Shown here piece by piece: positions 25,471 through 45,897 of a stretch of DNA of 64,000 nt. The DNA comes from a virus (Duplodnaviria; Caudoviricetes). The stretch is from positions 224,001 to 288,000 of the IMG/VR virus record IMGVR_UViG_3300024331_000007; one strand, 5' to 3'. Below the pieces are notes generated by a model. It was not told the DNA's origin and did no database searches. It saw nothing but the letters and a program-made list of their open reading frames with translations. The position numbers were made by a program, and so were the translations under genes. Each line of letters begins with the position of its first letter. Position 1 is the stretch's first letter.

Positions 25471-25689
25471 TCATTGTTCCAACTTTCTCAGCATATTCCA
25501 CTCAATGATTTCTCGTGCATCTTTCCATGCGTTCTCTGGTGAATTACAAAGTCCACTCAGAGCTTCAAAACTATAGAGTCCCATTCCTCGTACTACCTAA
25601 TATTGTTCTGGCGCGTTACCATAATCCTCACCGACTATTTTAATCGCTGCATTTGGGTGAAACATTCGAACAAATTGTTCAGGTGTCAT
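25471..25689 (-). pseudogene. family-A member with in-frame TAG (absent from ORF track)
   Basis: MTPEQFVRMFHPNA...EQY*VVRGMG...SPENAWKDAREIIEWNMLRKLEQ; TAG at 25597-25599. Confidence 0.8.
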
Positions 25690-26130
25690 ACTATTGAGTC
25701 GTTTCCCTCTAACTTATTCAGCATTCTTTGTCCAACTCTTTCTCGTGCTTCGGCCCATGCCTCATCTGGAGTTTCACAAGTTCCAGCAACCCAATCGTAA
25801 CAAACTTTACCATCAAATCGTATTACAATATAACCAACGTTGTTTTTGTATCGCCAACTCCAGCATGTTGACAATTGAACATCATCATACACGCTCATTA
25901 GGAACTCTTTATCTGTCATGATTCAAATGCCTTTAAGGTTTCCGTCAATATTCGTTCTTTACCATTGCGCCACATTTCTTCTTCAGTATCTCCCGACACA
26001 CAAAACGTAACTATCGATGCATGATGACCTGTTCGAGTGGCCCAAATTTCATAGCCTTTTTTACCCGACCAAAACACCTTTGTACGATATATTCGTGGAT
26101 ACACCGATCTAACAAATATCTCGTCTTCGG

Positions 26131-26381
26131 TCATTGTTCGAGTTTTTCCACCATTCGTCTTTGTGTTGTTAGCCACGCTCGTCTCCACGCTTCTTTAGCA
26201 TTCCACGGCGGAAGCCACCCCAATTTTTTATATTCGGGGGATCATTGGGTTGAGATGATAAATTGTCATACCAAATATAACCTTTAAAAGAATCAGTATT
26301 TCCAACCCACTGAATGACTTCCTTAGTCTGTGTTAGATATGCCTTTGGAAAAACCGACAGAACTTTTTGTCGATAACTCAG
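26131..26381 (-). pseudogene. frameshifted family-A member
   Basis: N-half RQKVLSVFPKA is in one frame; C-half KKLGWLPPWNAKEAWRRAW...MVEKLEQ is in the -1 frame. The shift lies within GATCCCCCGAATATAAAAAATT. Confidence 0.7.
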
Positions 26382-29028
26382 GCGCTTTCTAACTTGTCCA
26401 CCATGTCTTTTAGTATCTGTTCCCATGCCGCTTTCCATGCCTTCTTTGAATCATAAATTCTGTCACACAATTTTACAGTCTCGTAGTAATTGTTCCAGAA
26501 TCCTTTACATTCAGCCCTGTACTGAACTGATCCGTACCAAAACTCTGCGTTCGGATGAATCTGAAGAACTCGCTGCCTGTGCGTCAGGTGTTTTCGAACA
26601 TTCGTTTTAACCGTCATCGCTCTAACATTCTTAGCATTGTTTTTTCGTCATCCAGAATCTCAATCATTTCAGGGTCCATTTCGCAAAAGCAACCACCACG
26701 AATCTCCATATAGACTCGTCCGTCGTGACATTCAAACACCTTACCCAATTCAGATATGTCCTGCCATTTGATAAAAGGTCTGGTATGCCACACCCAATCT
26801 CCAACATTTATGAGTTTGCCATTCTTATCTTTCATGACTCCAGCCTTCTCAACATGAATCTGTCAACAATTCCGACTGCCTTTTGCCATGCGGAAGGTGC
26901 TGTATGAGCACAGGAAGCACACCAATTGTGGCCTTTCTCATCAATCCAAATCTCGTAACGATAATGTCCATCGGTATAAAACCTGAGATGGGCAGATGGA
27001 AAGATTGCCTGAATATGCTGCTTCGGAGTCATTCTGCGAGCTTGTCCAACATCTGTTTTTGAACTGTTCTCCATGCCTGTTCCCAAGCCCTTTCTGGTGT
27101 GTAGTCTTCCGCCAGTGTCACATCCCATGATTGCATTCCCTTTTCTTTTCGAACTTTAACAGACCACACACTCAAACCTGCAAATTTGAATGGGAATAGT
27201 GTTGCAGTTGGATATATTGCTTTAACGCTTTCTTCGGCTGTCATGGTTTAAATCTTCTGCGAGCCATTGCTTTTTCTTCCATCTCTTCATACATGCGCTG
27301 ATCCCACTCTCTTTCTTCCTCGCGCAGTTTTTCGAAGTATTCCTGTTCTAGCCTGTAGTCTTCTTCTCGTTCTCTCCAATACTGATCCATCGGGTCTTCT
27401 GCCAACTTGTCCAACATCTGCTGTTGAATGGCAATCCATGCTTGCTCCCATGCAACATCCTCAATCATATCTGGTGGACAAAACGTAGTGCTGATGGTTG
27501 CCAATTTCTGTTCAAATGGAAAGTCAGTAATCTCAATGAGAAACTGATCTTCCTTTGCATCACGAGCAATACGTTGGCTCTTGTGCGCAATTGCATTTGG
27601 ATATATTGCCAACACATGTTCTTTAGCTGTCATATTCCAGCTTCCTTAACATTTTGGTTTGAACATTTTTCCATGCTGACTCCCATGCATTATCAAGCGT
27701 AGACCCCACACCTATAGTATACATCTTTTTGTGCCAGTGCTTAATGTTAAAATCTGGGTAGTCGGAGCTAATTTCAACCAAATATATACTTAACGGAACC
27801 TTGCGGCCATCTCTTTTGTTTTGCAGGACTTTAATCTCTGCTTCGGGATAGATATTCAGAACATTTTCTTTAGCAGTCATATTTCGAATCTCTGTACCAT
27901 ATCTCTCATTATTCTGAATGCCGCCTGTTTCCAAACCAAAATTTCAAACATTCTTCTTGGAAGTGGATGATCTGTTGGCCTATGAACAGATGCCAGTGTT
28001 TGTTGATCCTCAGAAGTAGCAGGTGCACTGAGTAACAAATACGTTGTTCCTGATTTCCGCCCAACTCCGAATTTGTGTGTGAATGATTCTGGGTAGGAAC
28101 TAAGCACTATTCGTTTGGCCTCTCGTAGTGTCATGCGTTTTCCAGCTTCTCCAACATTTCATGTTGAACATCGCGCCATGCGATTGACCAAGCCAATTCT
28201 TCACTATCAGCCATTGTCATGTAATGCATTATAGGGGCCCCATCATATCTGATCCTGACTCGTCGCACATAATACATTAAACGACCATAAATCTGAATCG
28301 TGTCCGCTTCAGTTGTGCAATGGGCGCTTGGATATACCGCCATTACATTTTCCTTATCTGTCAAATGCGCCCTCCAACTGTAGTAGCATATTATGCTGAA
28401 TTTGTTTCCATGCTCGATTCCATGCAATATTTTCTGTGGCGCAAGTGCGGCCAATAAATCTGTCGTTCCATGATTTACCGCCGCAACATTTCTTATCACG
28501 GCATGGCTCGTTATAAACATACAAATAGAAACCATCATCCTCTCGGATGCAGGCATGTGGATATATTGCTTTGACTTTTTGTTCGGCTGTCTTTCTCATT
28601 GTGCCAACTTTGCCAGCATATCTCGCTGAATTTCAGTCCATGCCGCTCTCCACGCATTCTTTTTACATGCCACAGAAGGTCCAGCGTAGCCATTACTTCC
28701 TTCTGGACAACATTTTGGATTCCTGCAACCAAACGCCAGAACATAATAGTCAACTTGTTCTGATCCAACATCCACTCCTCGAACGTAGGCATGCTTATAA
28801 AGATTGATTACCTGATGTTTTGGTGTCATTGCTCTAACCTTCTAACCATTCCGATTGCAATCTTACCCCATGCATTTTTCCACGCAATTTTTGGCGTAAC
28901 ACCAACCCCAAGCCATGTTTCCGCCAATTCGCTGACACGAATATAAATTACCCAAAACTTTTTCACATGCTCGTATTTCTTCTGCTTTGCCGCTGGATAA
29001 ATCCGCCGCACATTTATCATGTCTTCGT

Positions 29029-29234
29029 TCATGATTCCAACTTCCTTAACATGTCTTCGCTCCAAGTTCCGTGGATGCAAGATACGAATGACCAACCAGC
29101 GCGTCATCAAAATGCTGAACTGTGTATCTGTAACAGGATGCGAATCGTTGTTCCGTGCAAAATGCCTGCGGATAAAACTTCAAAACCTTCTCACGAACGG
29201 AAACGAGTTCTGTTTGATCCTTGGAATAAGACAT
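29029..29234 (-). pseudogene. family-A member with apparent internal deletion/frameshift
   Basis: VREKVLKFYPQA...STELGA lacks the AW helix and stops; EDMLRKLES follows in another frame. Confidence 0.6.
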
Positions 29235-30194
29235 TCCTGAACTCCTTTCGTAATGGATAACCAAGTCCAATCCATGCTTGTTCCCACAACTGAGCATCGT
29301 ATTTGAAACTGCCATAAAATGTGTGATTATTGAATACTAACCACCTGCTTCCAACCTTAACACCGCGAACTTTCTTCTTTCTTCCACACACAGTTGCCCA
29401 ACCATCTTCAACTTTGGCTGTGGGGAAACACAATTTGACTTTTTCTTCAGTAGTCATGACATTAGCTTTTTCAACATCCGTTTCTGGATTCTTAGCCACG
29501 CCCATTCCCACAGATTTTCCTCAGACACCTTGTAGTAATCCATCTTGAAGATGAGCCATTTCCCGTCAGCAATCTTAATGCCAGAAACTTTATACTTGCG
29601 TTGCTTGAATCCATTAGCAGTTGACCGTTGGTAAACAGCTTCGGGATAAACGTTCTGTACCATCTCTTTGAAGTTCATTTGATTGCCAACTTTCTCAGCA
29701 TTCTTTCTTCAATCTTTTTCCATGTTCTTTCCCACACATATTCTCGGGAGAATCCACTAATGACATCCTGTACGGTATTTTCGTCCGAATACAACCAAAC
29801 CTCATACAAAAACTCATCAATACTTCCATGAGGGACAATCCTAAATTCAGTACGAGGATACAGGTTCATAACCATTTTTTCGTAATCTAGCTCGCCAACT
29901 TCTTCAACATTTCCTGCTGAATCTTTTTCCATGTACGTCTCCAAAGAATGTGCTCAAACTTTCCACCATATGCGTAACATTTATTACCGATCCAAACACC
30001 CTTGGCCATAATTTCTTTGCCGTAGTGCGATCCATCCGTTGACCAATCCCATGTTGATTGTGGTATCCAACCCCATTTCAATACAGCCTCTGGATAAACG
30101 GATTTTACTTTATCTTCTGCCCTTAATGAGGCAAACGTTCCTACACTCTTATTTTGAATGTTTGGGAACGTTATGTTCTTAGTCGATTTGTTTT

Positions 30195-30413
30195 TCATCC
30201 CATGATCTTTCTGAGTATATCTCGTCCTGCAATGCGTAAAAGATTTGTGATCTTGATTTCTGGAGCTTGCCGTTTCGTCTTGTGCAAAAAACAATAGTTG
30301 TTTCCAGATTCAGCCTGTAGCTTGCAACGATGTTTTTCCAAATACTTGTGAACTTCAGCATCGCTCATCAGCGAAATATCTGCGTCTCCGCAATAAATGC
30401 ATCTTTTACTCAT
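30195..30413 (-). CDS. small Cys/His protein inserted in the array
   Basis: CIYC...H...H.C...C..H; no YPxA motif. Confidence 0.55.
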   Translation of the reverse strand: MSKRCIYCGDADISLMSDAEVHKYLEKHRCKLQAESGNNYCFLHKTKRQAPEIKITNLLRIAGRDILRKIMG

Positions 30414-30632
30414 GACTCAAACTGCCTCATGATCTTGAAGTTTAATTCTTTCTTCAATTTCACCCAAACGCCATCTTCTGTTAAAGACCGTTGTAATTTG
30501 TCGTAATCTCCGAGTCCAAGTGATCCAACATATCGGACACCATCAGAAAATTTCAACGAAACAACTCTCGCATCTGGACACAACTCTTGCACGAATTGTT
30601 GGTCTTCGCTCATTAGAAACGACTTTCTATGC

Positions 30633-30702: not shown

Positions 30703-31317
30703 ATGAATACTTATCCCAATAATAACACATTTTACGTTTACGCATATCTTCGCCAAAATGGAACACCATATTACATAGGTAAAGGAAACGGAGATAGGGC
30801 ATTTCGTAATTATCGTAAACGATGTGTTCGTCCTCCAAAAGATAAATCTCGTGTAGTCATCCTTTTTGAGAACTTATTTGAACCAGCTTCCTTTCAAATA
30901 GAGATGCTATTTATTCGCATGTTTGGTCGTATTGATCTTGGAACTGGGTGCCTTCATAATAGAACCAGCGGCGGTGAAGGCATCAGTGGTTATCGTAGAA
31001 GTCCAGAATCAATCGCTAAACAAATTGAGACTATGAAGCGAAACAACAAGAAACAAAGTAATGCAACCATTCTGAAAAGAATAAACACTAGAAAACTGAA
31101 TGGAACCTTGAATCCTAATACATTAGATTCACTGCATAAAACAAAAATCAAACGAATTGCCAATGGATCGTATAAGCGCACACCAGAAGCTATCGCTAAA
31201 CAGATTGCTACGCAAAAACGAAATGGCACTAATAAAAGGACTCCAGAATCTATCGCCAAAGGATTAGCAACAAAATTAGCCAGAAAATCAATAACGATAG
31301 ACAATCCTACCCATTGA
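30703..31317 (+). CDS. GIY-YIG homing endonuclease with C-terminal RTPESIAK-type repeats
   Basis: FYVYAYLRQNGTPYYIGKG...R...E...LHNRTSGGEG. Confidence 0.85.
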   Translation: MNTYPNNNTFYVYAYLRQNGTPYYIGKGNGDRAFRNYRKRCVRPPKDKSRVVILFENLFEPASFQIEMLFIRMFGRIDLGTGCLHNRTSGGEGISGYRRSPESIAKQIETMKRNNKKQSNATILKRINTRKLNGTLNPNTLDSLHKTKIKRIANGSYKRTPEAIAKQIATQKRNGTNKRTPESIAKGLATKLARKSITIDNPTH

Positions 31318-31503
31318 TAATGAATATGGTGATAATTCCAACAATACTTCGTCTCCCGGTTCAATTCGGATGTTGTTTTTGCGCAACCTTCCACCCAAAT
31401 AAGCTGTGATCTGCTGATTACCCGGAATCTCCACCAACCATGTTGTATTGGGGAGCGTCTTTAAAATCCTACCTCTTAGTTCTACCTGTTCGTCGCGTGG
31501 CAT
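31288..31503 (-). CDS. infA: translation initiation factor IF-1
   Basis: 71 aa; ELRGRILKTLPNTTWLV...AYLGGRLRKNNIRIEPGDEVLLELSPYSLSMGRIVYRY. Confidence 0.92.
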   Translation of the reverse strand: MPRDEQVELRGRILKTLPNTTWLVEIPGNQQITAYLGGRLRKNNIRIEPGDEVLLELSPYSLSMGRIVYRY

Positions 31504-31549: not shown

Positions 31550-31763
31550 GCCCTTTAAACTTGTCCAAAATCCTTTTGTTTGTTATACTTAAAGACCATT
31601 CCCATGCTTGTATTTCGTTAGCCCATGAATGTGCAATGATTTTTTCGTCGGCTACAATAAACCAAAAGTTTGGGCATTCTTCAGGAACTCCTCTACAATA
31701 TGCGTTTGGAAACAGTTTTATCATTTGGTCTTTGGCTTCGTTCACAAGTTCTCCAACTTCCAT
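31536..31763 (-). CDS. family-A protein
   Basis: KLFPNA...EIQAWEW...ILDKF. Confidence 0.7.
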   Translation of the reverse strand: MEVGELVNEAKDQMIKLFPNAYCRGVPEECPNFWFIVADEKIIAHSWANEIQAWEWSLSITNKRILDKFKGLDSK

Positions 31764-32874
31764 AACATTGCCTCGCCTTTAGTCATCTTTCTGACATTGT
31801 GGCCTAATTTGTGTCGTGTCTCATTATTTGGTGACCATACAGTCAAGTAAACTTCGTCCATAATCTTAAGAATTTCAACAACCTGTCCTGTGTTATTGAA
31901 GTCTTGCTGACTTTCGAAATCTCTCCAAAAGACAACATCGTCAACGCCGACTTTCTTTCCGTTAATGTCCTTCAAGAATTTTCTAGTCGCCACAGCATTG
32001 CCTCTTCGTCGGACATTTTTCTAATGTTGCGTGAAGCTTTCTGAGCACCATCGTTAAATCTTGAGGTTTGAGTCAGAACAGCCAGCCCCAATGTTTCTCT
32101 GACTGATGAAACTTTTCCAGTCTCCATAAATGGTTCACGAAGATTGTGCCGCCAATATACCATATCACCACTGGCTAGCTCTACCCCATCAACATCTTTC
32201 ATGAGTGTTCCAACTTCCACAGCATTGCTTTCTCGTCAGATAATTTTACAAGTTTGTTAGGTGGAATATAAAACGTATAAGAGAGTATATCATCGTCCAA
32301 AATACTAATGTTTGGGAACTCTACTTGCGCCATTTTGGTTTTTCTATTCATAGCCTGAACAACACCAATCATACTTTTCTTTTGACGATGTTTACATCTA
32401 ACAATATCACCCTTATTAATCATGCGTTTTCCAACTTCCACAGCATCATAATTTCAGGAGATGCTTTTTTTAAATTTGTGAGGTATTTGGTCATCACTTT
32501 GTCTGCTCTTACATCAGTAACGTCAATCCATTCTCCACTTGAGTATGATGATGTTACTGTTCCTAATCTGTTGTATGAGAAATTTTCTTCATCACTCATC
32601 TTCCACAAGACCAAATCCCCGTAATCAAGTTTATTATTGTCAACGTCTTTCATACGTTTTCTAGCTGCCACAGCATTGCCTCTTCGTCGGACATTTTTCG
32701 TACATTGATAGGAAGCTTTTCCACTAACATACGATTAGTTGTTCGAATGGTTAAATAAGGAGTTTCCTGCGGCGATCCTACAATTCCGATACTGCTAAAG
32801 GAATTATATTCTCCGTTAATTCTGTACCAAACTATGTCTCCCACTTCCAGTATTTTTCCGTCGGTATCTTTCAC
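31742..32874 (-). CDS. five tandem family-B proteins: 31742-31993, 31972-32220, 32199-32441, 32420-32671, 32650-32874
   Basis: KD-x-[DN]-G-x-x-[LV]-x-x-GD-x-V-x-W...GxV...N[VIL]RK[ML]S[DE]EEAMLWKLE. Confidence 0.85.
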
Positions 32875-35800
32875 GCGCTCTCCAATTTTGTTACCATATT
32901 ATGAAGGATAGTTCTGGCAGCACGATACCAGCATTGTTCTTCACTGGTAAAACTATATTCAATTGCCTTTTCGCTGGTTGTATTCGGATCAACGTTTTCG
33001 GGAAAAATCATATACCACTCGCCCATTGATTCGGATCGGGTATGGCATTTGCAGTTTGGATAAACTGCTTGGACTATTGCTTTGTGTTCTTCAATATTCA
33101 TTATGACGCTTTCTTACTTCTTCGAAAAATAATCGGTGATCGCGGTTTGTCTTGTGTATTACCTTCAAGCTGATACATGATTTCTTCGTCAATGTGTTGG
33201 CGAATTTCCTTCCAAGTTTTTCGCCAGTCATCGTGACCATCCGTGCGATAGACAATCCCTAAAAGATTGCCTTTAATTTCGTCAGTGGCGTTTGAAACAT
33301 CATACACAGCCATGTTCCTTTCCCACCATCGTTTTATTTCTATTTTTGTGTACATGTTGCGAATGTATCGTTCATTCTCATCCATGTCTCCATCACCAAA
33401 CCAACCACCATCTTCAAAAATTGCCATTAGCTCTCCAATTCTTCCAGCATATCTTTACGCAATGTTCTGGCGGCACTTCTCCATGCAACAGTATTCGAAT
33501 ATCCACTATAGCCCAAAACCTTTAGTCCGATTGGATCAGCGTATATCACGTATTTGACTCTTTCAACTTTGTTGTCTTCGTCACAGAATGCTTTTTTATA
33601 CACACTCCTGACGAATGATTTATTTGTCATGATTTTAAATGTGCCAGCATCTTGCGTCCCATATCAACAACGGCATCTTTCCATGCAAGATGTGGAGTTG
33701 GCCCCCACCCCATTATATTCCTGATTCCCTTTCTGCTTGTTTGAACATATACAACGTACTTATCAAACAGAATGTTATCATTCTTGCCTTTCAACTCACA
33801 TACTGCTGAGGGATAGACATTCAAATATTTGTCTTTATATGTCATTCTTTTTCCAGAATCGATACCATTTTCTTTCCAATTGCTTCAGCGGCCATGTCCC
33901 ATGCTTTTTCTTCGCTCTCCATATCGTACCCGATCATGTTTGGCGCTAATCCACCAAAATCATAGATCAAATAATACGAACCAGACGGAGATGGAATTTC
34001 TCGGCATTCCGCCTGTGGGCAAGCACCCATCACTACTTTTTTGTTTTTCATTTTTCAAACCTTTCCAACATTGAATTTTTGATTTTATCCGCAGCGTACT
34101 TCCAAACTCTTTTCGGTGGTCCCGGTATCAACTGATTAGATATAACTGAATCGCCGTTCCTTATGTAATACAATTGGTTTAATTTCGCATGGTATCCAGA
34201 AGCCCCAAAGGTTGTTATTGCAAGTCTAGCCTTTGGATATATGCTCAGCACCAATTCCTTATTAGTCACTGTTACCCTCTAACTTTCTGAGCATTGTCAG
34301 TTGAATAGTTTCCCATGATGTTTTCCAAGCATCTCTGCTGGATGTTCCATAACCCAATAGTTGATGCATCCGTGTTCCGTTTTTGCCCATCCACGTATAA
34401 TACACTCTCCACTGCCGTTTATCACCAACTACTTGTTTGCATGTGGAATTTGGATGAACTCGCAGTACATAATCTCTTGCTGTCATGCAGCCTCTAACTG
34501 TGAAAGCATTTTTTGCCTGAATGTTTCAGCAACCTGTTTCCATGCATCTTCTTCGCTCATATAACTGTGACCAACAATGTATTCGCGATTGTGACCATCC
34601 ATTGCATAAATCACATACATGGATTCGGCGTCTGTATACTCTTGGAGCATACATATCGCAGTGGGTAATACGGATTGAACAAACTTTTTCTCACTCATCT
34701 GGTTAACTCTCTTAACATCAATTCCTGAATAACTTTTGCTGCGCTATACCAAGCCTCTTCCTCTGTTCTTCCCATTCCAATCAAATCAGTTCGTGCGCCT
34801 TCTATTGTTCGACCCAATTCGTATATTCCAAATCCTCTTCCACCAACATACACTCGACCAAAGATTGCGTCGGCAAATGGAAACGTTGCATGAACAACAG
34901 CCATATCATCTACCATTCTAGTTTCTTCATCATTTTTCTTGTAATAACATTCCATGCATTTTCCCATGCTTTCGGTTGAGATTTTGTGCTGTATCCGATC
35001 CACACTTTCCCAAATTCATCTCCATAAATTTGGTAATGGACTGTATTGTCATCGAATGTCAATTTCATGCATCCAGCGTCGGGATATACCGCAACAACAT
35101 TCTGTTGACTATCAGTATTTAATCCAGCCATTTTTTCAATAGTTGCTGGGGTTCTGTGATTCACGATTCTAACGTCTCCATCATTCTCTTTGTAATCTCA
35201 TTTGCAGCATCCTGCCATGCTTCCTTCGGAGTGCTTCCTGTTCCTAAAAGGCGCTTGTATGATGATTTTGTTCCTTTGGGTTGGCGTCGAATGAATACAC
35301 CAAAATAAATACGACCACTGGTGCTCTCGCCCTGATATAGGTAAGCTTCGGGATAAATTGATAGCACATGTGGTTTGGCTTTCATTGTTCCAGTTTCTGC
35401 ACCATTCTTTTGCAAATTCTATTTGCAGCCTGTTCCCATACAGCTTCTTCAGATTCATAGCTAATCGCCAGATACTCCGTTCCGATCCAAACCCCAAAGA
35501 ATCCTTCAAGGCTTTGATCTGTCACAAGTCTTACGTTTGGGTATGCTGCTTTTACTATGTCTTTATTCATCAATTCTCCAACTTTCTCATCATCATGCGA
35601 TTTATATCAATCGCTGCATCCTTCCACGCTTCACTTCTTGATGAATGCCATTCGTTTGATATCGGCCTGCCAGTTGAAAGATCAAAAATTGCAAAGAATG
35701 TTTTAGGCGAAAGAACAGTTGTTTCACTGGTAACACATTTTGCTTCTGGATAAACTGTTAATACCAATTTTCTGTTTTTCACGATGCAAGTGTCCTGAGT

Positions 35801-37488
35801 ATTTCGTAGTTCAAATTATCCGCTGCTGCTTGCCACGCCATTTCTTTTGTGGTTGACTTTCGCATATTACGCCAGCACATTGAAAGGTTTGTCCCATCAC
35901 TTGTGCGAACAAACCACTGTTTACTGACACGAACGCTCTGAATGCATTTAGCATCTGGGTACAATGACAACACGAATTTTTGTTCTGGTATCATCCTTCT
36001 AATTTCTTCAAAAATTGTTTTTGAACCATATCGTAGCTCTTTTGCCATGCTAGGCTTTCCTGTTTGTCGTCCGAATCAAGGTAGTATCTGTCGCCATGCT
36101 CATAATAACAAATGATTACAAATGAATCAGTTACTGATGGTTTTAAAAACCATACAGCCTGTGCCGTTGGATACATCTTCAATAAAGAACGTTTTGCGTT
36201 TTTCATGCTTCCAGCTTTTCCAATGCCAGTCTTCCAAGTTCATTTCGAGCAAATTCCCACGCTGTGTTAGGTTTCAATGATGGACCGCCCATCATTGTAG
36301 GGAATCGAGTAGGCAGAGCCACATAGTAAAAGAATCTTTGACCACCAAAAGACTTTACTTTTCTGAGTTTGGCTTCTGGAAAACTCTGTAGAACTATTTG
36401 TCTTGCTGTCATTACGACTCCAGTTTCTTAACCATCTTTTTTCCAATCCCCGCAGCCGCATCTTTCCATGCTCCAGCACGAGATGTCTGATGATAACCAA
36501 GAATTTGCATGTTCTTGTTCTCATCAATGTAAGATATCATAAATCCTTTGCCATTATTGAATATCGGACGACAATGAGCATTCTTGTATGAGGCGCGGGC
36601 TACGTTTCGTTCAGCTACCGCCTGTACTTCGTTTTTCGTCGTTGTCATCAATTCTCCAACTTTAATAAGAAGTCATTCTTTATTTCTTCTGCTGCTGTCA
36701 TCCACGCATCAGGTTCATTTATGAAACTGCTTCCGACCGTGTCAAGAATATCAGTGGTTCTGCTATTCTGAAACACCGTAAACGAACCCCACAGATACTT
36801 ACATACTGCATTTGGATAAACACCAAGAACTACATTTCTAGCCTCGATAAAATCGTTGTAATAGCTCATGATTCCAACTTCTTCAATAATTTTTGGCCCA
36901 TAACCTGTTTAGCCCAATACACAGAATTTCTCCAAGCCAATATTTCATTTTTTTGACTTGCTCCCAGATTGTCAATTTGAGTTCCATAATCAAAATATAT
37001 GATATACCACCGCGTTGTTTTCCCGCGATATGTATTATTAACTGCTACACATCTGGCACTTGGAAAATGTAGTTTGACAAATTTTTCGGCCCTAGTCATG
37101 CATCAAAAACCTTTCAGGATTGAGCGAAAGATGGATCGAAGCACTGCACCGTTTGACGGGAGTTTATGGAAATTGTGAAAATTGTGAAAGTCATTTGGAT
37201 CAAATTCAACAAAATGCTCGTATGTAGTTTTCCCATGTACTTGTCTGAGAATCCTCTTTCCGTCCATTGTTATTTTCTGCATGGTTTCAACAGTTGTCAT
37301 CTGATTCCAAACCCTTTCAGTATCGAACGACCAATTGCCAGTAAAACTTTTCCAGAAGATGGTATTACTTCAAAACATGTTATCGTAGCCTTATGTTTGC
37401 CTTTTTGAACTGTGTAAAACTGAGACACCTTATAGGTGTCTGCCATTGCCAATGGAAAAAGTTCTTTGACTCTTTGTTCGTTCGTCAT
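32871..37488 (-). repeat. family-A paralogue array, left arm part 2 (about 20 genes)
   Basis: 32871-33101, 33101-33427, 33427-33630, 33627-33845, 33842-34051, 34048-34269, 34262-34486, 34483-34698, 34695-34913, 34910-35164, 35161-35385, 35382-35573, 35570-35782, 35779-35994, 35991-36206, 36203-36412, 36412-36651, 36648-36869, 36866-37099, and a divergent member ending at 37297. Confidence 0.9.
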
Positions 37489-37597
37489 TTTGAAATCAAA
37501 CCCTTCCAAATCACATTCAAAAGAACAGTCAACACTTTCTTGCGCGATGCTACAGGTGGGACGTATGGATTATACACTCCACCGTCCCACATTTCTC

Positions 37598-38803
37598 TCA
37601 CTTCACACCCCGAAGCAAGATGCTGTCTCCGTTGATTGCTTCGCGAAGCGGAGTAGCAACGGCCTTGATTCCATTGAACCACTTGACGGCACCCGGCTTG
37701 CCATAGTTGGAAAATTCCTTCAACTGTTCGGCTGGCTTACGCAGAGTTTTTTGCACACTCTTTGTAGGATCGATGTTCGTCAAACGAGTGCTTTTGACTT
37801 CAAAAGACATTCCATTCAACGCAACATAGTGTCCTAATTTCCGAAGGCGAGTATTGTAAACCCACAATTCAGAGCATTTCAAAACTTGCGTTGCGTCAAT
37901 GCTCGTCAACTTCAATTCCTTGTACTCACGAAGAAACTTGAGTTTCGAAACAATCTTCGAGGGTGGTTTTGGTTTGCGCTGGCGAGTCTTATGCATGCTC
38001 TGCTTTTGATGACTGAACACGCTAATCTCGCTGATTGCTGTTTCCCACCATTCGATGGCCGCTTTCATCTTGCGCTTTCCTACGTGTTCATAGGACTCAG
38101 CAATTTGTGCATCTTTTCCAGCAAGTGCAGTTTTGTACTCGCTCAAATACTTCTGACAATAGTCAATCAAATCCTTTGAGCGATTCGCGGGAATTGTTGT
38201 TTCAGGGTCTTTCAGAATAGAGGAAACGGAAGGCGCTTTCTTCGCGGTTGAATAATCCGCTCCCACGAATTGATCGAATGCGTAATCCACTTCACCGCAA
38301 ACTTTACGAATCCGCGCTCTGAGATGATCCTGAATGTTTGGTTTTGATGTACTTCCTGCTTCCTTCTCTTCAATCTGCTTTTGATTAGTAAGACATTCCT
38401 TGATGAACTTCACGATGAAACGGCGTTCACGAAAACGCAGGAACAGTCCGACATGTGCCATACGCAAAACCTTGGCGACGGTAACAGAAAAAGTCAGTGT
38501 GGAATTTTTGATGGCAATAAGAAGTTCAGGAAAATGACCGCTCAAACCCAATGCGGAAAGTCCAAGTGCAATCAGTTCCTTATCTTCCTGAGTCTGTGCG
38601 TACCAGTTCAAGGCTGCGCTTAATTGTTTGTCATACTCAGTGCGAGTCCATGCCTTTTGAACATCGATAGAAGGCCACGTTGGTTCTGTTTCTCCAATGT
38701 ATTTCGCTCCCTCGCGTTTGAAATGCAAGGTACGAATGGGCTTCAAAGCCGCTGGCTGAAAAGAGCGTACAGGTCTGGAAGGCGTTTTTGCGCTGTTCTT
38801 CAT
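37598..38803 (-). CDS. 401 aa hypothetical phage protein, probably early and leaderless
   Basis: Long ORF; basic C-terminal ELWVYNTRLRKLGHY...VQKTLRKP region; promoter ends 6 nt before the ATG. Confidence 0.7.
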   Translation of the reverse strand: MKNSAKTPSRPVRSFQPAALKPIRTLHFKREGAKYIGETEPTWPSIDVQKAWTRTEYDKQLSAALNWYAQTQEDKELIALGLSALGLSGHFPELLIAIKNSTLTFSVTVAKVLRMAHVGLFLRFRERRFIVKFIKECLTNQKQIEEKEAGSTSKPNIQDHLRARIRKVCGEVDYAFDQFVGADYSTAKKAPSVSSILKDPETTIPANRSKDLIDYCQKYLSEYKTALAGKDAQIAESYEHVGKRKMKAAIEWWETAISEISVFSHQKQSMHKTRQRKPKPPSKIVSKLKFLREYKELKLTSIDATQVLKCSELWVYNTRLRKLGHYVALNGMSFEVKSTRLTNIDPTKSVQKTLRKPAEQLKEFSNYGKPGAVKWFNGIKAVATPLREAINGDSILLRGVK

Positions 38804-38809
38804 GTGCCT

Positions 38810-38838
38810 ATGATACCGAAGTTTAGAGCAAAAGTCAA
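38810..38838 (-). promoter_or_regulatory. sigma70-type promoter driving the left arm
   Basis: TTGACT-17nt-TATCAT-aggcac-ATG. Confidence 0.7.
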
Positions 38839-38899
38839 CGCAATCCGTAAAACCAGTGAAATCATATGCTTATTTGGCAAAATAAAATAAACTTTTTGG

Positions 38900-38950
38900 T
38901 TGCAATTCTGACCAAACTTTGCTATTCTATATAAGTAGTCGAGAGGGAGA
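38900..38950 (+). promoter_or_regulatory. early promoter cassette, copy 1
   Basis: TTGCAA-17nt-TATTCT-ATATAAGTAGTCGAGAGGGAG. Confidence 0.75.
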
Positions 38951-38954
38951 AACG

Positions 38955-39272
38955 ATGAGACGGAGAGTACACACAATTGAAACCCTTCGGATGCAAGGCA
39001 AACTAAACAAAGACTTTGCAAAAACCACTCCCGACCATGCCACGGACGGAACGAAAGCCTATGATGTGATTGGCATTTCAGGTGATCATTGGCAGGTTCA
39101 CAAGCACGGATGCAGCGCAACGTTCTCCAAGCCGGGTCAAGTTTTGACTGCTGATCTTGTTTGGTCCGCAAAGACAACCGATATACCCGCGCAAGTTATT
39201 GATTCTGAACTTCTTGACATGGGTTTTGACTACACTTGCGTAGTTTTCCACAATTGCACAAAGAAATATTAA
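38955..39272 (+). CDS. early hypothetical protein
   Basis: ATG 38955 after GGGAG SD. Confidence 0.6.
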   Translation: MRRRVHTIETLRMQGKLNKDFAKTTPDHATDGTKAYDVIGISGDHWQVHKHGCSATFSKPGQVLTADLVWSAKTTDIPAQVIDSELLDMGFDYTCVVFHNCTKKY

Positions 39273-39281
39273 ACTTTTTGG

Positions 39282-39332
39282 TTGACTTTGCCGCCAAAGT
39301 TTGATATTCTATATGGGTAGTCGAGAAGGAGC
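39282..39332 (+). promoter_or_regulatory. early promoter cassette, copy 2
   Basis: TTGACT-17nt-TATTCT-ATATGGGTAGTCGAGAAGGAG. Confidence 0.75.
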
Positions 39333-39335
39333 CAC

Positions 39336-39855
39336 ATGAGCTACAAAGCAGCGATTAAGGTCGGTCTCGGAAACGAACGTAGCTACAACTCTCTGCGCTT
39401 TGCAACTCCCGAAGAAGCAACGGCCTATGCGAAGAATTTGTTCTCTCGCTGGATGCTCATGACTGGTTTTGAAGTCGAACCCTCTGAGGATGCCGTGAAC
39501 TATGTGTGGGAAAACAATGTACTTACGGCAATTGCCGTTACAAACCCACCGATCAGTGTATAACCAATCTCAATATTCGGGAGAACAAACGATGCGCCCA
39601 CTCAAGTTTGAAGGTGTTGCTGAAGTTGGAGACAAGATTCGCGCCTATGATTTTGAACCTATGGAGGGGCGTCCTGACCGCTATATCGAGGGCGTCGTTC
39701 GTGAAGTTGTTCAATGGGTTCGCGCTGGTGGATACAAAGCATATGACATTGTTCTGACATATGACAGCATGGGCGGAAGGCCAATAGGCACAGCAATTTA
39801 CGTTCCAATGGAAATTGGAATGGACTTCGACATTCGAGTTCAGAAAATCAGTTAA
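39336..39855 (+). CDS. two early hypothetical proteins: 39336-39563 and about 39592-39855
   Basis: ORF track, SD-preceded ATGs downstream of the promoter. Confidence 0.6.
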
Positions 39856-39903
39856 CCCCTTTGTTTCTGCACGAAAAAATGTCAGTATTTTCGCATAATT
39901 TGC

Positions 39904-39954
39904 TTGCATTCATGACCAAACTTTGATATTCTATATGAGTAGTCGAGAGGGAGA
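39904..39954 (+). promoter_or_regulatory. early promoter cassette, copy 3
   Basis: TTGCAT-17nt-TATTCT-ATATGAGTAGTCGAGAGGGAG. Confidence 0.75.
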
Positions 39955-39958
39955 CACA

Positions 39959-40598
39959 ATGATTGCAAACGCGAAAGTTTCTCAGAGGCTTGAAGGTTTC
40001 GTAGCAAAAGTACAGGCCGAAACACTTGCGTATTACGCCAAAAAGTTCCCTACGCTCATTCCTTCGATCATCGAAGTTGAAGAGGGCAGCAAGTTCTATC
40101 GCATCGTAAAAGCAGAGCGTGGTACACGTAGCGTTCACTCGTTTGTGTCCAAGGCGAACGGCGACATTTTCAAGGCTGCTGGTTGGAAGGCACCCGCGAA
40201 GCATGTTCGTGGCAACATCTTTGCCGCTGATTACGGCTGGTCTTCAATGAATGTGTATGGCGCGAAATATCTCCGCTAAACAATTTGTGTATGTCAACCG
40301 ATAGCAAAGGATTGAAGCAATGACTGATCTATTTTCGGCAACGATCAAGCAATACATCTACGGAACATCAGGAACTGAACTTCCGCCGCCTGTTGAAAAA
40401 GTAAAGTCAACGACATTTTTATCTTTGCCAACTGAGACGAAAGAAGAATTCGAGCGCAAAGTCCAAGAATACGGCATGGCACTGCGCATCAAAGCTGCCA
40501 ATGTTACTCCACGGCCATATAGTCAACGAGATGGAATTGATTGGTCTATATCATGTATTGAACCTCGACCTTATGATTTTGATAGCAACGCGGAGTAA
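39959..40598 (+). CDS. two early hypothetical proteins: 39959-40279, 40320-40598
   Basis: The first carries SVHSFV...GDIFKAAGWKAPAKHVRG, a motif I associate with phage hypotheticals. Confidence 0.6.
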
Positions 40599-41163
40599 TC
40601 GTTTATGTCTCAGCATAGCTCCGCTAAACAATTTGTGCAATCCCTTTACCCATCTGCGATATGCAAGTGGGTAAAGGTGCTTCCGAATGAGTTTGTGATT
40701 ACCGTTTCGTTTGCTGAATGGAACGGCTTTGAAAGTCGCCAATATAAAACAGTTGAATTGGAATGGGCAACAACTGCGATTGGCGCATGGTGCGCAATGC
40801 GCGAACTAATCAATGCGAAGATTATGGAGAAACTAAACTCGTGATCGACAAAAAGATTCGCCCACTGCCGAAAAGACTTTCGAAGTTTCAAAGGATTGTT
40901 CTGGCGTCGTATCCAAACGCCCGAATCGGAAGTGCCGATGCTGTCAAGGAAACAATGAAACCTTATTGGGATCGCAAGTCTGGATTTGAGATGTTTGACA
41001 GCTTTGGTAAAACTTCGAAGTGGGCAATTTATACAGAGCCAGAAAGTGATCGAATTACAATCTTAGTTAACGTGATTGGCGTGAGTTCTAGCTCACAATC
41101 GAAGGCATGGGAAGATGCTTGCAACGTAATGGGCGCATTCATGTTGATGAAATTGGAGAAATA

Positions 41164-41592
41164 ATGGAAAAGTCCGTAATCTCGTCAGAACAAATGGATA
41201 ACTTGTGCTTTGCCAGCTATCAACTATTGCAGGCGATGAGTAATGTTTATGGTTCCGATCCTGCCTATGAAATGTTCCTCAAACTTGAGGAAGTACTAGG
41301 ACCTGAGGTTAAGGGCAATCTATTTTTGAAGATGTTAGACAGCCAATACACAGGTGCTGGCCCTATGCATTTCAAATTTCCAAATGGTCAGTGTGGAAAC
41401 GCCATTCTCATGATTCGAGGCGTCCGTGAATTTTCAGTTGACAAATATGGAAACAAATGGAGTCTGAAGGACGCCAAAGATGTTATCGACACGTCGAGGT
41501 TTGGTGGTATCGGAACAATTCATTTCATAACAGTTGGCGAGCGTAACGAATTTATCAAGCTGTTGAAGTCTAATAACGGCGTGACCATATGA
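41164..41592 (+). CDS. protein with ribosomal L7/L12 C-terminal-like segment
   Basis: AILMIRGVRE...WSLKDAKDVID resembles the L12 CTD pattern KIxxIKxVRExTGxGLKEAKDxVE. Confidence 0.45.
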   Translation: MEKSVISSEQMDNLCFASYQLLQAMSNVYGSDPAYEMFLKLEEVLGPEVKGNLFLKMLDSQYTGAGPMHFKFPNGQCGNAILMIRGVREFSVDKYGNKWSLKDAKDVIDTSRFGGIGTIHFITVGERNEFIKLLKSNNGVTI

Positions 41593-42027
41593 GTCCGAAC
41601 GAAACAATTGTGAAGGCAGTCTATCCGAATGCAGAAATTCGGGAAGTAGCATCTGGAGTTTATCGAGTCTTTACGCAGCCAAGCGGATTTTCTAAAGATG
41701 GAGATTTGACTTTTAGCATTGGGCATTCTCTCGGCGCTTCATGTTTCACAGATACAGAAGACAAATGGAAGAATGCGGCAGATTCGATCAATTTCAAAAT
41801 GATGAGGGAACTTGAATTATGACACCAAAGCAAACAATTCAGCAAGTTTATCCACACGTAAATTGCCACAAAATAACATGGGCAATTGGATCGAACCTTC
41901 CCAGATTTCAAGTTTATGTAAATGGAATCTCAACTTCATTTGGAGTAACTCGTTACGCAGCATGGAAGGAAGCATTGGTTTGGTATAATAACGCCATTCA
42001 AAAACGGCTGCTGAGAAAGCTGGAATC

Positions 42028-42273
42028 ATGAAAGAATATCTTCGTAATCACAATAATGTAACGATGTTTCTGAGTACGTGGGTTTCGTTTCCAATTTGTA
42101 TTCTTTTGGTTCATAACATGACCATTCCAGTAATGCCGTGGCATCTTTGTTTCAAGCTCGTTTTTCCAATGCTGGGATTTTGCTCAGTTGTATTTTTTCT
42201 GTTGGGTTGGATGACTGACGGAATGAATAGGCAGACCTTAAAGGAAGAATTTTTGCGGAAACTGGAATCGTAA
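42028..42273 (+). CDS. two-TM membrane protein carrying the array tail
   Basis: Hydrophobic helices followed by LKEEFLRKLES. Confidence 0.65.
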   Translation: MKEYLRNHNNVTMFLSTWVSFPICILLVHNMTIPVMPWHLCFKLVFPMLGFCSVVFFLLGWMTDGMNRQTLKEEFLRKLES

Positions 42274-43771
42274 TGTACAAAACAGAAAAATTCGTGAAGT
42301 CTGTTTTTCCAACTTCCAAAGCGTGTCCTTTATATGGAGGGACCTCGTTCATGATCGACGGATTTCCAGAAGGTTCAGGAATGAAACGATGGGACACATG
42401 GCATGAAACTGAACGAAAATCATGGAATGATGCAGCTAGACAGATACACAGAAATATGTTGAAGAAACTGGAGAATGCGTGAGCAAGGCTCAAAAATTCG
42501 TGAAGTCTCTTTATCCCGATGCGTACCTGCTAGAAACGCTATCACCTGTTGGCAATCATCGGTATCAGGTAGTGTACGATATTACTGGAACCTTTATGCC
42601 AACATGGTATTGGGCTAAAAAGAATGATGCATGGAAACAGGCTGAGTTAAGAATAAATCAGAGACTCATGGAGAAGCTAGAATCGTGAGAGCAAGGGATC
42701 AAGTTTTGGCGAGGTATCCAGATGCTGTGGTGTTCAAATCATCCGCCACCTGTATGTGGGAACTGTACTCAAAATTGAGAGCCAAACATTGCTTCAACGG
42801 ATTTATTGTTTGGGGATGTATGACTAAAGGATCGGCGTGGCAAGAAGGACTAGACTATCTTGACCGCGAACTTTTGAAGAAGTTGGAATCATGACAGATA
42901 AAGAATTTGTTCAAACCACATATCCCGATGCTGTAATGAGAACTAAAGATTTCTTTGGTCTTAACAAATTAGGCACTGACGAAAACATCTACGCAATTTT
43001 TCGCGGGGATCGAAAGAAAGCCAAACGAAACCATGCAATAACAATGTTCTGGACTAAGACGGAAGACGATGCATGGAAGCAAGCAGCCGCTTACCTACGA
43101 CAACAATTTTTGAAGAAGTTGGAATCATGACTGATAAGCAGTTTGTACTCTCAATCCACGACGACGCATTTGCATCTGAGAGCAATATTTCGGGCTTCAT
43201 AGTAATCTATGACGATAACCTGCAATTCCACCAACTCAGTCAATACTGGATCATTGAAGAGGATGCGTGGAAGGATGCAGCAGATCGACTGAGGGAAAGA
43301 TTTCTGGAAAAATTGGAAAGCCAATGACAGATAAGCAATTTGTAAAATCAGTTTGTCCGACTGCCCATCTGCGTAATACGCAGAAAAGTAAAACTGTTTT
43401 TTGGTATATTGACACTCGCCTAAAAGGTGCTTACTGGCCTAAAAAAATCTCAGGAGAGTTTATTATCAAGGGCGATGCGTGGAAACATGCAGCAGAAAGA
43501 CTTCGTATGGACATGTTAAGGAAACTTGAATCATGACGGAGGAAGCTGAACTCGCAAAACAGTTTGTGCTATCCATTTATGCTGGAGCTAAATTTGTGCG
43601 AAGAGAGGAGATGCCCAACATAGATGCATTCGCACCAACACCCGACGATTGCCAAATTATGGATGCGGATAGGCGTCATTCTTTAGCTATGAAATGGTCC
43701 TACAATGAAAATGATGCTTGGATTGACGCCCGAAATTTTATCAACTTCAAAATGATGCAGAGGTTGGAATC

Positions 43772-43998
43772 ATGAATCCGTTCGAAGCAGTTGATTACGT
43801 CCGAGGAATATATCCGTTTGCTTATTGCAAGGAAACCTTTTCCTATGGGAAAAGGGGTTTCGTTATTATGGACGCGGAACGCGGCTCAGGTCATGACGAA
43901 GAATTTTTAACTGGATGGAGCTATACCACAAGAGAACAGGCGTGGGTGAAGCTGTGAGATACATTCATCTCAACATGCTTAGGAAGTTTGAATCATGA
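43772..43998 (+). pseudogene. family-A member with a 1-nt deletion after the AW motif
   Basis: QAW-[GT]-EAVRYIHLNMLRKFES: only 2 nt lie between TGG and GAA, giving a premature TGA at 43955-43957. Confidence 0.75.
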
Positions 43999-44409
43999 CT
44001 GACAAGGAGTTTGTTATATCAGCTTATCCCAATGCCGAATGCGATGACAGTCGGCTATTATTTGACCGTAATGGCGTTTTCATGTATGCAATTTATTTGG
44101 CGGGTAGCAAACCTCGTTCAAGTATTTCGGCAATGTGGGCGGAATCCGAAGAACAGGCATGGAAGGAGGCAGCGGACATTATCAGATATGATCTTCTGAG
44201 GAAGTTTGAGTCATGAACGAAGACATGGAATTTGTAAAACGATTGTATCCAACCGCAGTGTATGATTCTCATGCATTTTGGGTTTGTGCGGACACAATTG
44301 AGGCTGGTAAGAAACGCACATATATTTTAGGTATCGGTGGAAATGCAAAGAATGGTTGGACCCATGCAGCGCAACACCTTCGTAATAGGGTGTTGCGCCA
44401 ATTTGAAAG

Positions 44410-45897
44410 TTAACCAATCTTGAAACAGATTTTCCCACCGGGTCTTGACGATGCACTGTAGTTTTTTCGGCTGAAAAATTTAACTGTTCCTGTGAATACA
44501 GGTGGCCAAATTACTTGGAAGTTTGAGAACGATGCTCCATTACCAGTTTTCTTAACGCTCGTCTTAACTTGAAGCATATTGCTGCGGCTCAAAATCTCTC
44601 TGAAAAAGTCAGTCACAAATTTTGAGTTCTTATTCAAATGATCAGTGACTGAGTGAGCCACGATGGTTAGCAAATGATAACCAACTGTATAATTCGGACT
44701 GTTCACATTTGGATTTGTGACTGGATTTTTCAGCAATGCCTTTAGCTCTTTCGACAAATGCTTCTTATCCATATGAGGATCGGCGATTGCTCTTTTGATT
44801 TCATCACGCATTGCTGGAGTTATTATCTTATAAAGCACACCAAGGACCAGCGGCCCTTCTTCAGCAGATTTATCCTTCACAACTTTCATAACACTGAACA
44901 GGCTTTTGTACTTTCCGCTTTCCACTAAATCTTCGTATCGTTCTGGATTTCGTTCTATGGCAGAAGTTAAGCTTGTGATGCTTGCTGCTGCTCCGCCCTT
45001 TCCATCCTTGCTGCTGATACCAATCTTATCATTCTTCAGAATTAGATAACTATCAATCAAGGCTTCCCTGTCGCTCATTGGATATCCAATTAATTTGATC
45101 TTCCTCCAACTTGAACCCATTGGTTTCAGCAATTGATCCTCGACTTCTCTGTAATCTCCAGAAACAAAATGTCCTGTGAGTAGCGCGATAGGTGCGGCAA
45201 TTTCTCCAAGGCTAACTTCATATGATGTTGCATATTGGGCAGCATTGGCAACAGGTGTATCAAAACCAGCATATACGTTCTTTACTAGCTGAATAGATTG
45301 CTGACGAACGTCCTGTGGTATTTCTGTATGAGTTGGAAGATTCGTCTGAATTGTTTCCATAATCTCATCAACGGTCATGTATCTGCCGTCACCCACAACG
45401 ACGCTTGGGGTGAGATTCAGGTCAGTTTTTTGTTGTACGTTGTCGTTAATTGAATAACCAGTGTCTCTGGCAAAATCGCTGTTGCTCCAAAAGAATGGAA
45501 CAGCACCAGCACTTTTTGTATTGAATAATTTTACAAATGCAACTGTCTCGCCTCTGCCATTCTTCCATAGAGTAACAAGGGCTGCTCGACCATTCGTATT
45601 AACCAAATTCCAATTTGCATTTGAGATTCTTGCTTTCTTTTGATATTGCGCAAGAACATCCATAACTTTCATGTAACCAGTTTTCAGTAGCTTTTTCTGC
45701 TCTGCTGGCGGAAGTTTACGGGCCTGTTTTGGCAGGGCTTCAATCGTGTCGTTTTCATAAAATGCGGCATCTTCGGGGAAAATAGCATTGCCGATGGCAG
45801 TTATCTTATGCCCGTCTTTGTCGGTGAATACAGCCGACTCCTGTGAGCGGACATATATTCCACGACTTCCAGCTTCTAGTAGTTGATGATATTTCAT
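44410..45897 (-). CDS. 495 aa late hypothetical protein, possibly virion-internal
   Basis: TAAATA (45903-45908)-N5-ATG; MKYHQLLEA N-terminus. Confidence 0.65.
   Translation of the reverse strand: MKYHQLLEAGSRGIYVRSQESAVFTDKDGHKITAIGNAIFPEDAAFYENDTIEALPKQARKLPPAEQKKLLKTGYMKVMDVLAQYQKKARISNANWNLVNTNGRAALVTLWKNGRGETVAFVKLFNTKSAGAVPFFWSNSDFARDTGYSINDNVQQKTDLNLTPSVVVGDGRYMTVDEIMETIQTNLPTHTEIPQDVRQQSIQLVKNVYAGFDTPVANAAQYATSYEVSLGEIAAPIALLTGHFVSGDYREVEDQLLKPMGSSWRKIKLIGYPMSDREALIDSYLILKNDKIGISSKDGKGGAAASITSLTSAIERNPERYEDLVESGKYKSLFSVMKVVKDKSAEEGPLVLGVLYKIITPAMRDEIKRAIADPHMDKKHLSKELKALLKNPVTNPNVNSPNYTVGYHLLTIVAHSVTDHLNKNSKFVTDFFREILSRSNMLQVKTSVKKTGNGASFSNFQVIWPPVFTGTVKFFSRKNYSASSRPGGKICFKIG

Follow-up and report, generated by a model that had tools for sequence, protein, structure and literature searches.

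The region described here lies in a window of 64 kb, bases 224001-288000 of a single 359,890-bp contig (41 % G+C). Among the genes of the window are those for a gp5-like baseplate hub/lysozyme and for SbcCD nuclease subunits that resemble gp46 and gp47, because of which the contig is taken to represent a jumbo phage of the T4 superfamily. Its nearest relatives are uncultured and include a 353-kb metagenome contig that carries the same divergent two-arm gene array, and fragments from soil metagenomes. Window positions 31742-42273 take in parts of both arms of this array, which consists largely of genes for very small proteins of two families, here called A and B, with a gene for a small membrane protein among them. 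Proteins of all three kinds end in a similar element, the tail, a C-terminal amphipathic helix of 7-12 residues, the core of which is h-L-x-(K)-L-E and which is capped by one or two polar residues (S, N or G). The similar endings to which an initial annotation of this region had drawn attention are real: the B proteins end in AMLW[KRQ]LE[NH]x, the A proteins mostly in ML-x-KLE[SNQK], and the membrane protein in FLRKLES. No other element of these mini-proteins is as strongly conserved as the tail, which is also the sole feature that links families A and B to each other and to small membrane proteins.

The occurrence of the tail was counted genome-wide with the pattern [LMIVF][LMIV]..[LFM]E.{0,3}$ in all open reading frames (ORFs) of at least 40 amino acids (n = 2713). 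The pattern was found at the end of 106 of them. When the same proteins were cut at random points, 7.2 ± 2.5 matches were obtained (200 trials, maximum 15), and reversed sequences gave 6, by which chance is excluded as the source of the enrichment. The matching ORFs are divided into 45 members of family A, 32 of family B, and 29 located elsewhere. Close variants of the tail occur in another 22 A members, above all as KLA[SQE] in one sub-array, and the initial estimate of about 90 tail-bearing proteins was thus too low. The 85-residue ORF at 5593-5850, which had been credited with a related end, terminates in ALLKALEMGIK; this is a loose match with four residues after the LE that cannot be distinguished from chance, and it was not counted.

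Iterated profile searches collected 84 ORFs into family A (76 of them in the window) and 38 into family B (10 in the window), with no member in common. The A proteins start with the consensus MTxKxFVxxxYPxA and finish with AWxxAxxxIxxxMLxKLE[SNQK]; these two ends are fixed, while the centres of the proteins are hypervariable. An AlphaFold2 (AF2) model of an A member, made with a paralogue alignment, reached a predicted local distance difference test (pLDDT) value of 91.6 and shows a helix at residues 3-11, three strands, and a helix at residues 48-68. This α-β-β-β-α topology was matched best by the third double-stranded RNA-binding domain (dsRBD3) of TARBP2 (Z 7.0, root mean square deviation 2.3 Å over 64 residues), one of 21 chains at Z ≥5, values below 8 being such that they may reflect a mere common arrangement. 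None of 33 A members matched the Pfam model dsrm at E ≤1, and the basic dsRBD motif KKxAK at the N-terminus of helix 2 was not found in family A, the consensus of which reads AWxxA at that place. Helix 2 of A is about two turns longer than in most dsRBD alignments and the extension is the tail: most of these alignments stop at residue 61-63 of the A model, directly before it. Searches of A with PDB sequence profiles yielded nothing at E <0.45. The best of these matches, obtained with the A N-terminus (e.g., of 42479-42688), was the uncharacterised protein 4fr9 (E 0.45, not significant); the alignment covers the V-x-x-x-Y-P-N-A motif and the first strands and could be a lead to a remote relationship outside the dsRBDs.

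Each of the five tandem B genes at 31742-32874 encodes an SH3/KOW-like barrel followed by a C-terminal helix that ends in [ST]xEEAMLW[KRQ]LE[NH]x. The AF2 model of one of them, 32650-32874 (pLDDT 91.0), has a five-stranded SH3/KOW/Tudor-like barrel and then a 10-residue helix at residues 63-72. In the ESM Atlas, the clusters nearest to the B body consist for 94-99 % of DUF7205 proteins (feature score 0.90, TM 0.75), and precomputed matches to PF23835 (DUF7205) exist for three external homologues that were found with the B profile. No Pfam model was matched at E ≤1 by any of 22 B members, and weak PDB profile matches were to ribosomal protein L24 and PsaE. A literature search found no mention of DUF7205. 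Beyond the window, at genome positions 147645-149591 (locus L006), proteins of 250-257 residues with Cys-rich N-terminal parts have a tail-bearing B barrel as their C-terminal domain, and a 153-residue protein with two B barrels has retained the tail on the last copy only.

The third kind of tail carrier in the region, the 81-residue product of 42028-42273, contains two hydrophobic segments at a 19-residue Kyte-Doolittle value (KD19) of at least 1.6 (maximum 2.21), whereas no such segment is present in A or B proteins. It is A-like only over its last 11-19 residues. Its gene overlaps the upstream A gene by an ATGA and the downstream A gene by a TAATG. An orthologue from a soil metagenome, 54 % identical, occupies the same slot between A genes and has an identical FLRKLES end. 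The membrane protein is thus the product of a genuine, conserved gene, and its tail, unchanged at this level of identity, is under selection and not a passive remnant. A frameshifted A gene was considered as the source of the membrane ORF and rejected; a six-frame profile search detected no A- or B-like body, only the tail. Another six or seven small proteins with one or two transmembrane (TM) segments, encoded elsewhere in the genome, end in [FLM]LxK[LF]E[SEL]. Among the membrane genes, only those in tandem at genome 129.1-130.3 kb (129156, 129431, 129706, 130008) are interrelated, with z values of 4-10.7 for three pairs. No kinship with this cluster or with each other was detectable (z ≤2.8) for the proteins of 42028-42273, genome 68259-68438 and genome 130265-130519, the last of which is encoded directly beside the cluster. 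The membrane protein of genome 68259-68438 lies within a B array and yet carries an A-type KLES tail instead of the local LENA type. In the membrane proteins, the tail follows a polar linker.

A third soluble family, D, comprises five members in the genome that end in EYVLFxLEW[ST]. It showed no match to A or B, and its neighbours in the Atlas are uncharacterised viral clusters, one of which has 6418 members. Pfam and PHROGs assigned no family to A, B, or the membrane ORF. Helical-repeat proteins encoded near the B and D arrays (genome 70510, 137576, and 138535) were also considered as tail carriers and were rejected, as the ..MLAKL.. at their ends belongs to an internal repeat unit of these proteins, whose first helix it forms.

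That the bodies are unrelated was seen most directly when the tail was cut off. Profiles made from the bodies only recovered 80 A and 27 B ORFs, with zero overlap. Profile-profile alignment with hhalign joined A and B over 10 columns (E 1e-3), B and D over 18 columns (E 3e-4), and B and the membrane set over 15 columns (E 5.5e-4), in all three cases through the tails only; the 19-column match between A and the membrane set (E 7.5e-6) was lost upon removal of the tail. Without tails, no similarity remained for any pair (E ≥0.13). The claim that one tail is shared by at least three unrelated protein bodies is thus borne out by two distinct predicted folds, the membrane proteins, and the lack of profile similarity between the tail-less bodies. 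As at least two folds carry it, the tail is not simply a structural helix of one shared fold. The cap residues are family-specific, both here and in other phages (LES in A, LEN[AV] in B, LEWS in D). Since each family keeps its own cap, the families do not visibly swap tails at present, which points to descent within families. The positions of the genes and repeats concerned are listed in Table 1.

Table 1 Tail-bearing genes, repeat copies, and associated features in the window (positions are those of the window)
Feature	Position	Strand	Remarks
Five tandem B genes	31742-31975, 31972-32202, 32199-32423, 32420-32653, 32650-32874	-	4-nt stop/start overlaps
33-nt exact repeat, copy 1	31989-32021	-	(R)KMSDEEAMLW of gene 31972-32202
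33-nt exact repeat, copy 2	32667-32699	-	In gene 32650-32874
Minus-strand arm, proximal part: 19 consecutive A genes of about 63-108 aa	32871-37099	-	ATGA overlaps at most junctions
Minus-strand arm, distal part: 37 A ORFs, some truncated	21614-30613	-	KLA[SQE] sub-array; lies beyond 31742-42273
One B gene embedded in the distal A arm	26614-26835	-	
Plus-strand arm: 14 A genes, membrane gene 42028-42273, unrelated 161-aa ORF 41107-41592	40605-44413	+	
Two-TM protein, 81 aa	42028-42273	+	Tail ..LKEEFLRKLES, DNA at about 42238-42273
Dispersed A gene	6149-6352	-	Ends MMRLLEN
Three more A genes	59058-59798	-	End TLEKFEE, MLDKFEN, TLAKFGG
Dispersed B gene	1380-1598	-	Ends EAFLHKLESK
B-like ORF	1819-2115	-	Ends DAFLHTLEQ
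Three tandem B genes	9331-10089	-	End EEAMLA[IM]LE[GDA]x
85-aa ORF	5593-5850	-	Ends ALLKALEMGIK; loose resemblance, not counted as tail

The tail is conserved in other phages. The A profile, run against 1.84 billion proteins, returned 1495 representative clusters at E ≤1e-3; the best 150 matches included 140 short proteins, 107 of which end in the strict tail. EAMLYKLEN is the ending of nearly all external B homologues, whose contigs measure 18-233 kb. On a 232-kb contig there are arrays of both B and D, each family again with the tail specific to it, and the 353-kb relative again has A arrays, with TTG-GAA-TCA-TGA junctions. On the contig of a 116-kb phage (L013), the genes of a B array and a single A gene end in AMLWKLEN and MLKILES, respectively. 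The tail genes of this phage do not overlap; they are separated by intergenic spacers, have their own Shine-Dalgarno (SD) sites, and mostly use GAA. They form the cleanest control, in which the tail is kept without any gene overlap. Between these phages, the tail is invariant. When 50,697 GenBank phages were searched by tblastn with a single member of each of the families A and B, no match at E ≤0.01 was obtained. In IMG/VR, a single B protein produced 19 pattern matches, none of which was confirmed, and a degenerate DNA pattern for EAMLYKLEN produced 0.

Many genes of the arrays overlap: in 60 of the 84 A ORFs and 30 of the 38 B ORFs, the stop codon overlaps the next start (ATGA, GTGA, TTGA, or TAATG). 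The comparison of codon- and residue-level conservation that the initial annotation had called for places the conservation at the level of the residues. All synonymous codons occur at the conserved Leu and Glu positions, and the ML codon pair varies synonymously; located 12-18 nt before the stop, this pair falls outside any ribosome-binding site. The last codons are biased all the same. In the final Leu-Glu pair, 69 % of the Leu codons of A and 84 % of those of B end in G, compared with a background of about 40 %, and GAG accounts for 42 % (A) and 62 % (B) of the Glu codons, against 25 %. The bias is linked to coupling: GAG is used in 47 of 82 coupled tails (57 %) and in 6 of 24 uncoupled ones (25 %, equal to background; Fisher p = 0.0097), while in family B alone the numbers are 20 of 26 and 0 of 6. 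At the ends of arrays and in singletons, the tail residues are kept with codons that do not form an SD sequence. Other coupled genes of the genome encode their SD sequences with varied residues (KEDL, KEGI, GEPE, KEETI), so that coupling as such does not yield LE. No conserved RNA structure was found at the junctions, where the alifold consensus was empty and mean minimum free energy (MFE) z-scores were -0.2 and +0.2. The tail is thus selected as a peptide and bears an RNA overlay on its last codons, the latter being indicated by a GGAG bias that is present only where the downstream gene overlaps.

The spacing at the junctions differs between the families. In the long genes of the genome, the ATG is preceded by SD-like 4-mers at distances of 4-10 nt, most often of 6-8 nt. 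The B junction (LENA-TGA) has its GGAG 5 nt before the ATG, inside the usual range. At the A junction (LES-TGA), GGAR is only 2 nt away, which is too close; an AGGA in Arg-Lys codons is located at about 10 nt. The distance of about 2 nt given in the initial annotation therefore holds for A junctions and not for B junctions, and its judgement that a simple SD role does not suffice is upheld by the A-type spacing and by the uncoupled genes that keep the peptide. At several A-A junctions (21614-22773 and 29675-29944, both on the minus strand), an ATAG, ATAA, or CTAG is present instead of ATGA, so that the downstream gene lacks an ATG at that place. Its ORF opens 18-20 codons upstream, in another frame of the helix of the preceding gene, at an ATG within the GCA-TGG-AA of the Ala-Trp codons. 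The same alternative frame (M-E-..-G-x-M-T-D-K) is open in many other A members. These junctions could represent a real N-terminal extension, a near-cognate restart at ATA, or decay.

At the protein level, the tail of A and B resembles the end of a domain more than an appended peptide. In the A model, helix 48-68 is continuous, and its last 10-residue block has a pLDDT of 94. The positions conserved in the 107 external A tails (-11 W, -8 A, -7 A/W, -4 I, 0 M, +1 L, +4 L) form one uninterrupted i/i+3/i+4 stripe from the AW motif into the tail. The stripe is bordered by K(+3) on one edge and by E(+5) on the other, and the helix is closed by a polar residue. The B tail opens with a capping box (S/T-x-E-E) and ends in Asn, Ser, or Gly; an S/T-x-x-E N-cap precedes the tail in family B as well as in the membrane proteins. 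Because of the continuous stripe, the confidently predicted helix, and the capping box of B, the tail in both families looks like the last two turns of a domain-closing helix that continues a hydrophobic stripe, probably a buried one to judge from the residue pattern, and not like a tag borne on a linker. This speaks against the earlier notion of the tail as a free module. A degron had been proposed as well; one of the ssrA or nonpolar-tail type does not agree with the polar ends (S, N, Q, K, E, NA) or with the 10 of 77 B tails that are internal, with 5-15 residues after them. A MinD/FtsA-type net-basic helix was not recognised either: B (S-D-E-E-A-M-L-Y-K-L-E-N) is net acidic, and A (M-L-R-K-L-E-S) has a charge of about +1. 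Co-folding of one A with one B protein, carried out without controls, gave a score of 0.00, which says nothing either way.

The argument for a module had drawn on the 33-nt repeat of Table 1, which was confirmed as exact and as confined to the tails of two otherwise diverged B genes. It cannot be extended by a single base, and the rest of both genes can barely be aligned at the DNA level. In the 64-kb window, only one other exact repeat of at least 25 nt exists, of 27 nt (22021-22047 and 22239-22265), which falls in two adjacent A genes on the sequence for their conserved N-terminal helix, DYKAKVLAVY. The 33-nt repeat reflects sequence exchange or conversion that was restricted to the tail and took place within family B, not between families.

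The reading that we favour, to which we give about an even chance, is that of one preferred C-terminal capping helix under joint constraints of protein and ribosome-binding site. In A and B, the tail would make up the final turns of the closing helix of each small domain, in which M/L/L would extend the buried stripe, K and E would flank it, and S, N, or G would end the helix. In the very long operons with ATGA or TAATG overlaps, the last codons of the tail would, on the evidence of the codon statistics, double as the ribosome-binding or restart site of the next gene. The restart region would take the forms YTG-GAG, AGG-AAG, and then NNA-TGA, codon choice being bent towards these only when the downstream gene is coupled. 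The likeness across families may then mean that one well-behaved terminal helix was retained, or was converged upon, under both constraints, and no common reader of the tail would be needed. Occasional exchange of 3' ends inside the arrays may have seeded the likeness and is the best candidate for the origin of the tails of the membrane proteins. Several observations weigh against a capping helix. Burial of the tail is read from the sequence pattern and not from model coordinates. At least four mutually unrelated membrane bodies (z ≤2.8) carry the tail without a globular domain to close. The tail is dispensable for the A fold, as ML-x-KLE is absent from eight homologues that contain two to four A domains in tandem and from four dispersed paralogues, in all of which the helix ends about seven residues earlier. 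A Glu occupies +5 in 75 of 77 B tails although the barrel offers it no invariant basic counterpart, and Met at position 0 is common to A (84 %) and B (77 %). The external multidomain proteins include P0005, P0091, P0008, and P0036, two of which possess C-terminal multi-TM regions.

Most of these observations would be accommodated if the tail were a common docking epitope, i.e., if an exposed helix face, with its K and E, its S/N cap and, in B, its W/Y, were read by one partner from the phage or the host, and over 100 mini-proteins, including membrane proteins, were recruited, localised, stabilised, or degraded as one class. The same core on at least four unrelated body types, among them membrane proteins, would be expected of such an epitope, as would its conservation across four or more phage contigs (116-360 kb), its optional addition to the A domain, and proteins with hypervariable centres and fixed ends. 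L, L, and E are near-invariant, and K carries 2.6 bits in A as compared to 0.5-1.5 bits at other exposed helix positions. Yet no candidate receptor emerged, the hydrophobic residues seem to belong to the core of each domain itself, and caps differ by family. A whole A sub-array has Ala for Glu (KLAS), which, with the internal B tails, makes recognition of a free C-terminus unlikely; the invariance of the tail between phages leaves no co-variation to be seen. We consider a docking epitope rather unlikely, yet a serious rival, chiefly on account of the membrane proteins, of the A fold that can do without the tail, and of the invariant Glu. Its more specific form, in which the tail is an address label whose K/E/cap face is read by one phage or host protein in a "tag-and-dock" system of a clade of 116-360-kb soil phages, is in our estimation unlikely. 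A separate proposal concerns the origin of the tail and fits either functional reading: the tail DNA with its stop/start junction may have supplied the homology for unequal crossing-over and 3'-end exchange that built the arrays, newly captured bodies inheriting the resident tail. Both long exact repeats do lie on conserved gene ends, the membrane genes fill array slots precisely and overlap the genes at either end, the membrane protein of 68259-68438 has an A-type KLES tail in the midst of a B array, and A and the membrane set are alike over 19 columns. The identity of tail DNA between families, however, does not exceed what the shared residues demand, the family-specific caps suggest vertical descent, and the membrane tail is unchanged in the 54 %-identical orthologue; we regard such an origin as quite improbable.

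At the other extreme, the tail residues might be the mere translation of a ribosome-binding or restart signal. The enrichment of G-ending Leu codons and of GAG at LE, the dependence of this bias on coupling, and the well-placed GGAG of B all agree with an RNA element, and this part of the initial proposal is retained. An element that acts as RNA only is nevertheless extremely improbable, since the peptide is selected in its own right: there is synonymous variation in the ML codons, uncoupled genes retain the peptide while using GAA, the 116-kb phage has it without overlaps, and other coupled genes encode SD sequences by other residues. The absence of conserved RNA structure (MFE z-score about 0) and the 2-nt distance of the A-type GGAR from the ATG are further points against it.

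Several known systems resemble parts of what is seen here. Translational coupling via ATGA or TAATG overlaps, with the ribosome-binding site of the downstream gene inside the upstream ORF, is classical in operons and phages. The overlap of A and B genes with the next start and the GGAG bias limited to coupled genes correspond to it; in contrast to the classical case, the dual-coded stretch is at the same time a residue-conserved helix of unrelated families, which is kept where genes are uncoupled. The internal proteins of T4, like other small polymorphic proteins of T4-type phages, share a short N-terminal capsid-targeting sequence that is cleaved by the prohead protease at L/I-x-E. The present phage is T4-like and its small proteins are likewise highly diverse with a conserved terminal peptide, but the peptide is C-terminal, helical, part of the A/B fold, and devoid of a cleavage motif. 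Encapsulation peptides of microcompartments and cargo-loading peptides of encapsulins sit on flexible linkers on unrelated cargo and bind a known shell. They share with the tail the nature of a short terminal amphipathic element on unrelated bodies, whereas the A/B tail has no linker. MinD and FtsA possess C-terminal amphipathic helices for membrane targeting, and the end of MinD resembles F-L-K-R-L-F. The h-L-K/R-K/R-L pattern of such helices is recognisable in the FL[RK]KLES of A- and membrane-type tails; unlike them, the tail ends in Glu and a polar cap, and the B tail (EEAMLWKLEN), being net acidic, would be ill-suited to anionic lipid. A likeness to the C-terminal peptide of FtsZ (A-F-L-R-K) extends over four residues and was set aside.

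At least 122 ORFs of the present phage thus fall into two undescribed mini-protein families. Should a common partner read the tail, the seven-residue peptide would be a handle with which to find that partner, and might open a very large class of phage "dark matter" to functional study all at once. Should the tail be a capping helix that doubles as the ribosome-binding site of the next gene, it would provide a clean natural example of dual coding, in which coupled and uncoupled copies separate the constraints on protein and RNA.

Other genes are found in and around the arrays. A literature search on arrays of paralogues in jumbo phages found nothing relevant. About 30 paralogues that resemble GIY-YIG/NUMOD homing endonucleases are scattered over the genome, one of which, at window 30703-31317 on the plus strand, has the distal part of the A array on one side and the proximal part on the other. 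A homologue of translation initiation factor IF-1 (PF01176, 64 bits with a cut-off of 30) is encoded within the mini-gene arrays at 31288-31503 on the minus strand, and an eIF-1a/IF-1 match occurs at the same array position in two related contigs. Upstream of the IF-1 homologue lies a perfect promoter-like TTGACA-17-TATAAT site (31549-31521, minus strand); between 30500 and 45000, sigma70-like promoters and terminators were not enriched relative to shuffled sequences. At the point where the two arms diverge, a 401-residue protein is encoded on the minus strand (37598-38803) that matches phrog_11903 (E 1e-49). Proteins of 410 and 393 residues hold the same position in two related contigs, and distant homologues exist in PA5oct-like Pseudomonas phages and in phages of Stenotrophomonas, Sinorhizobium, and Caulobacter.

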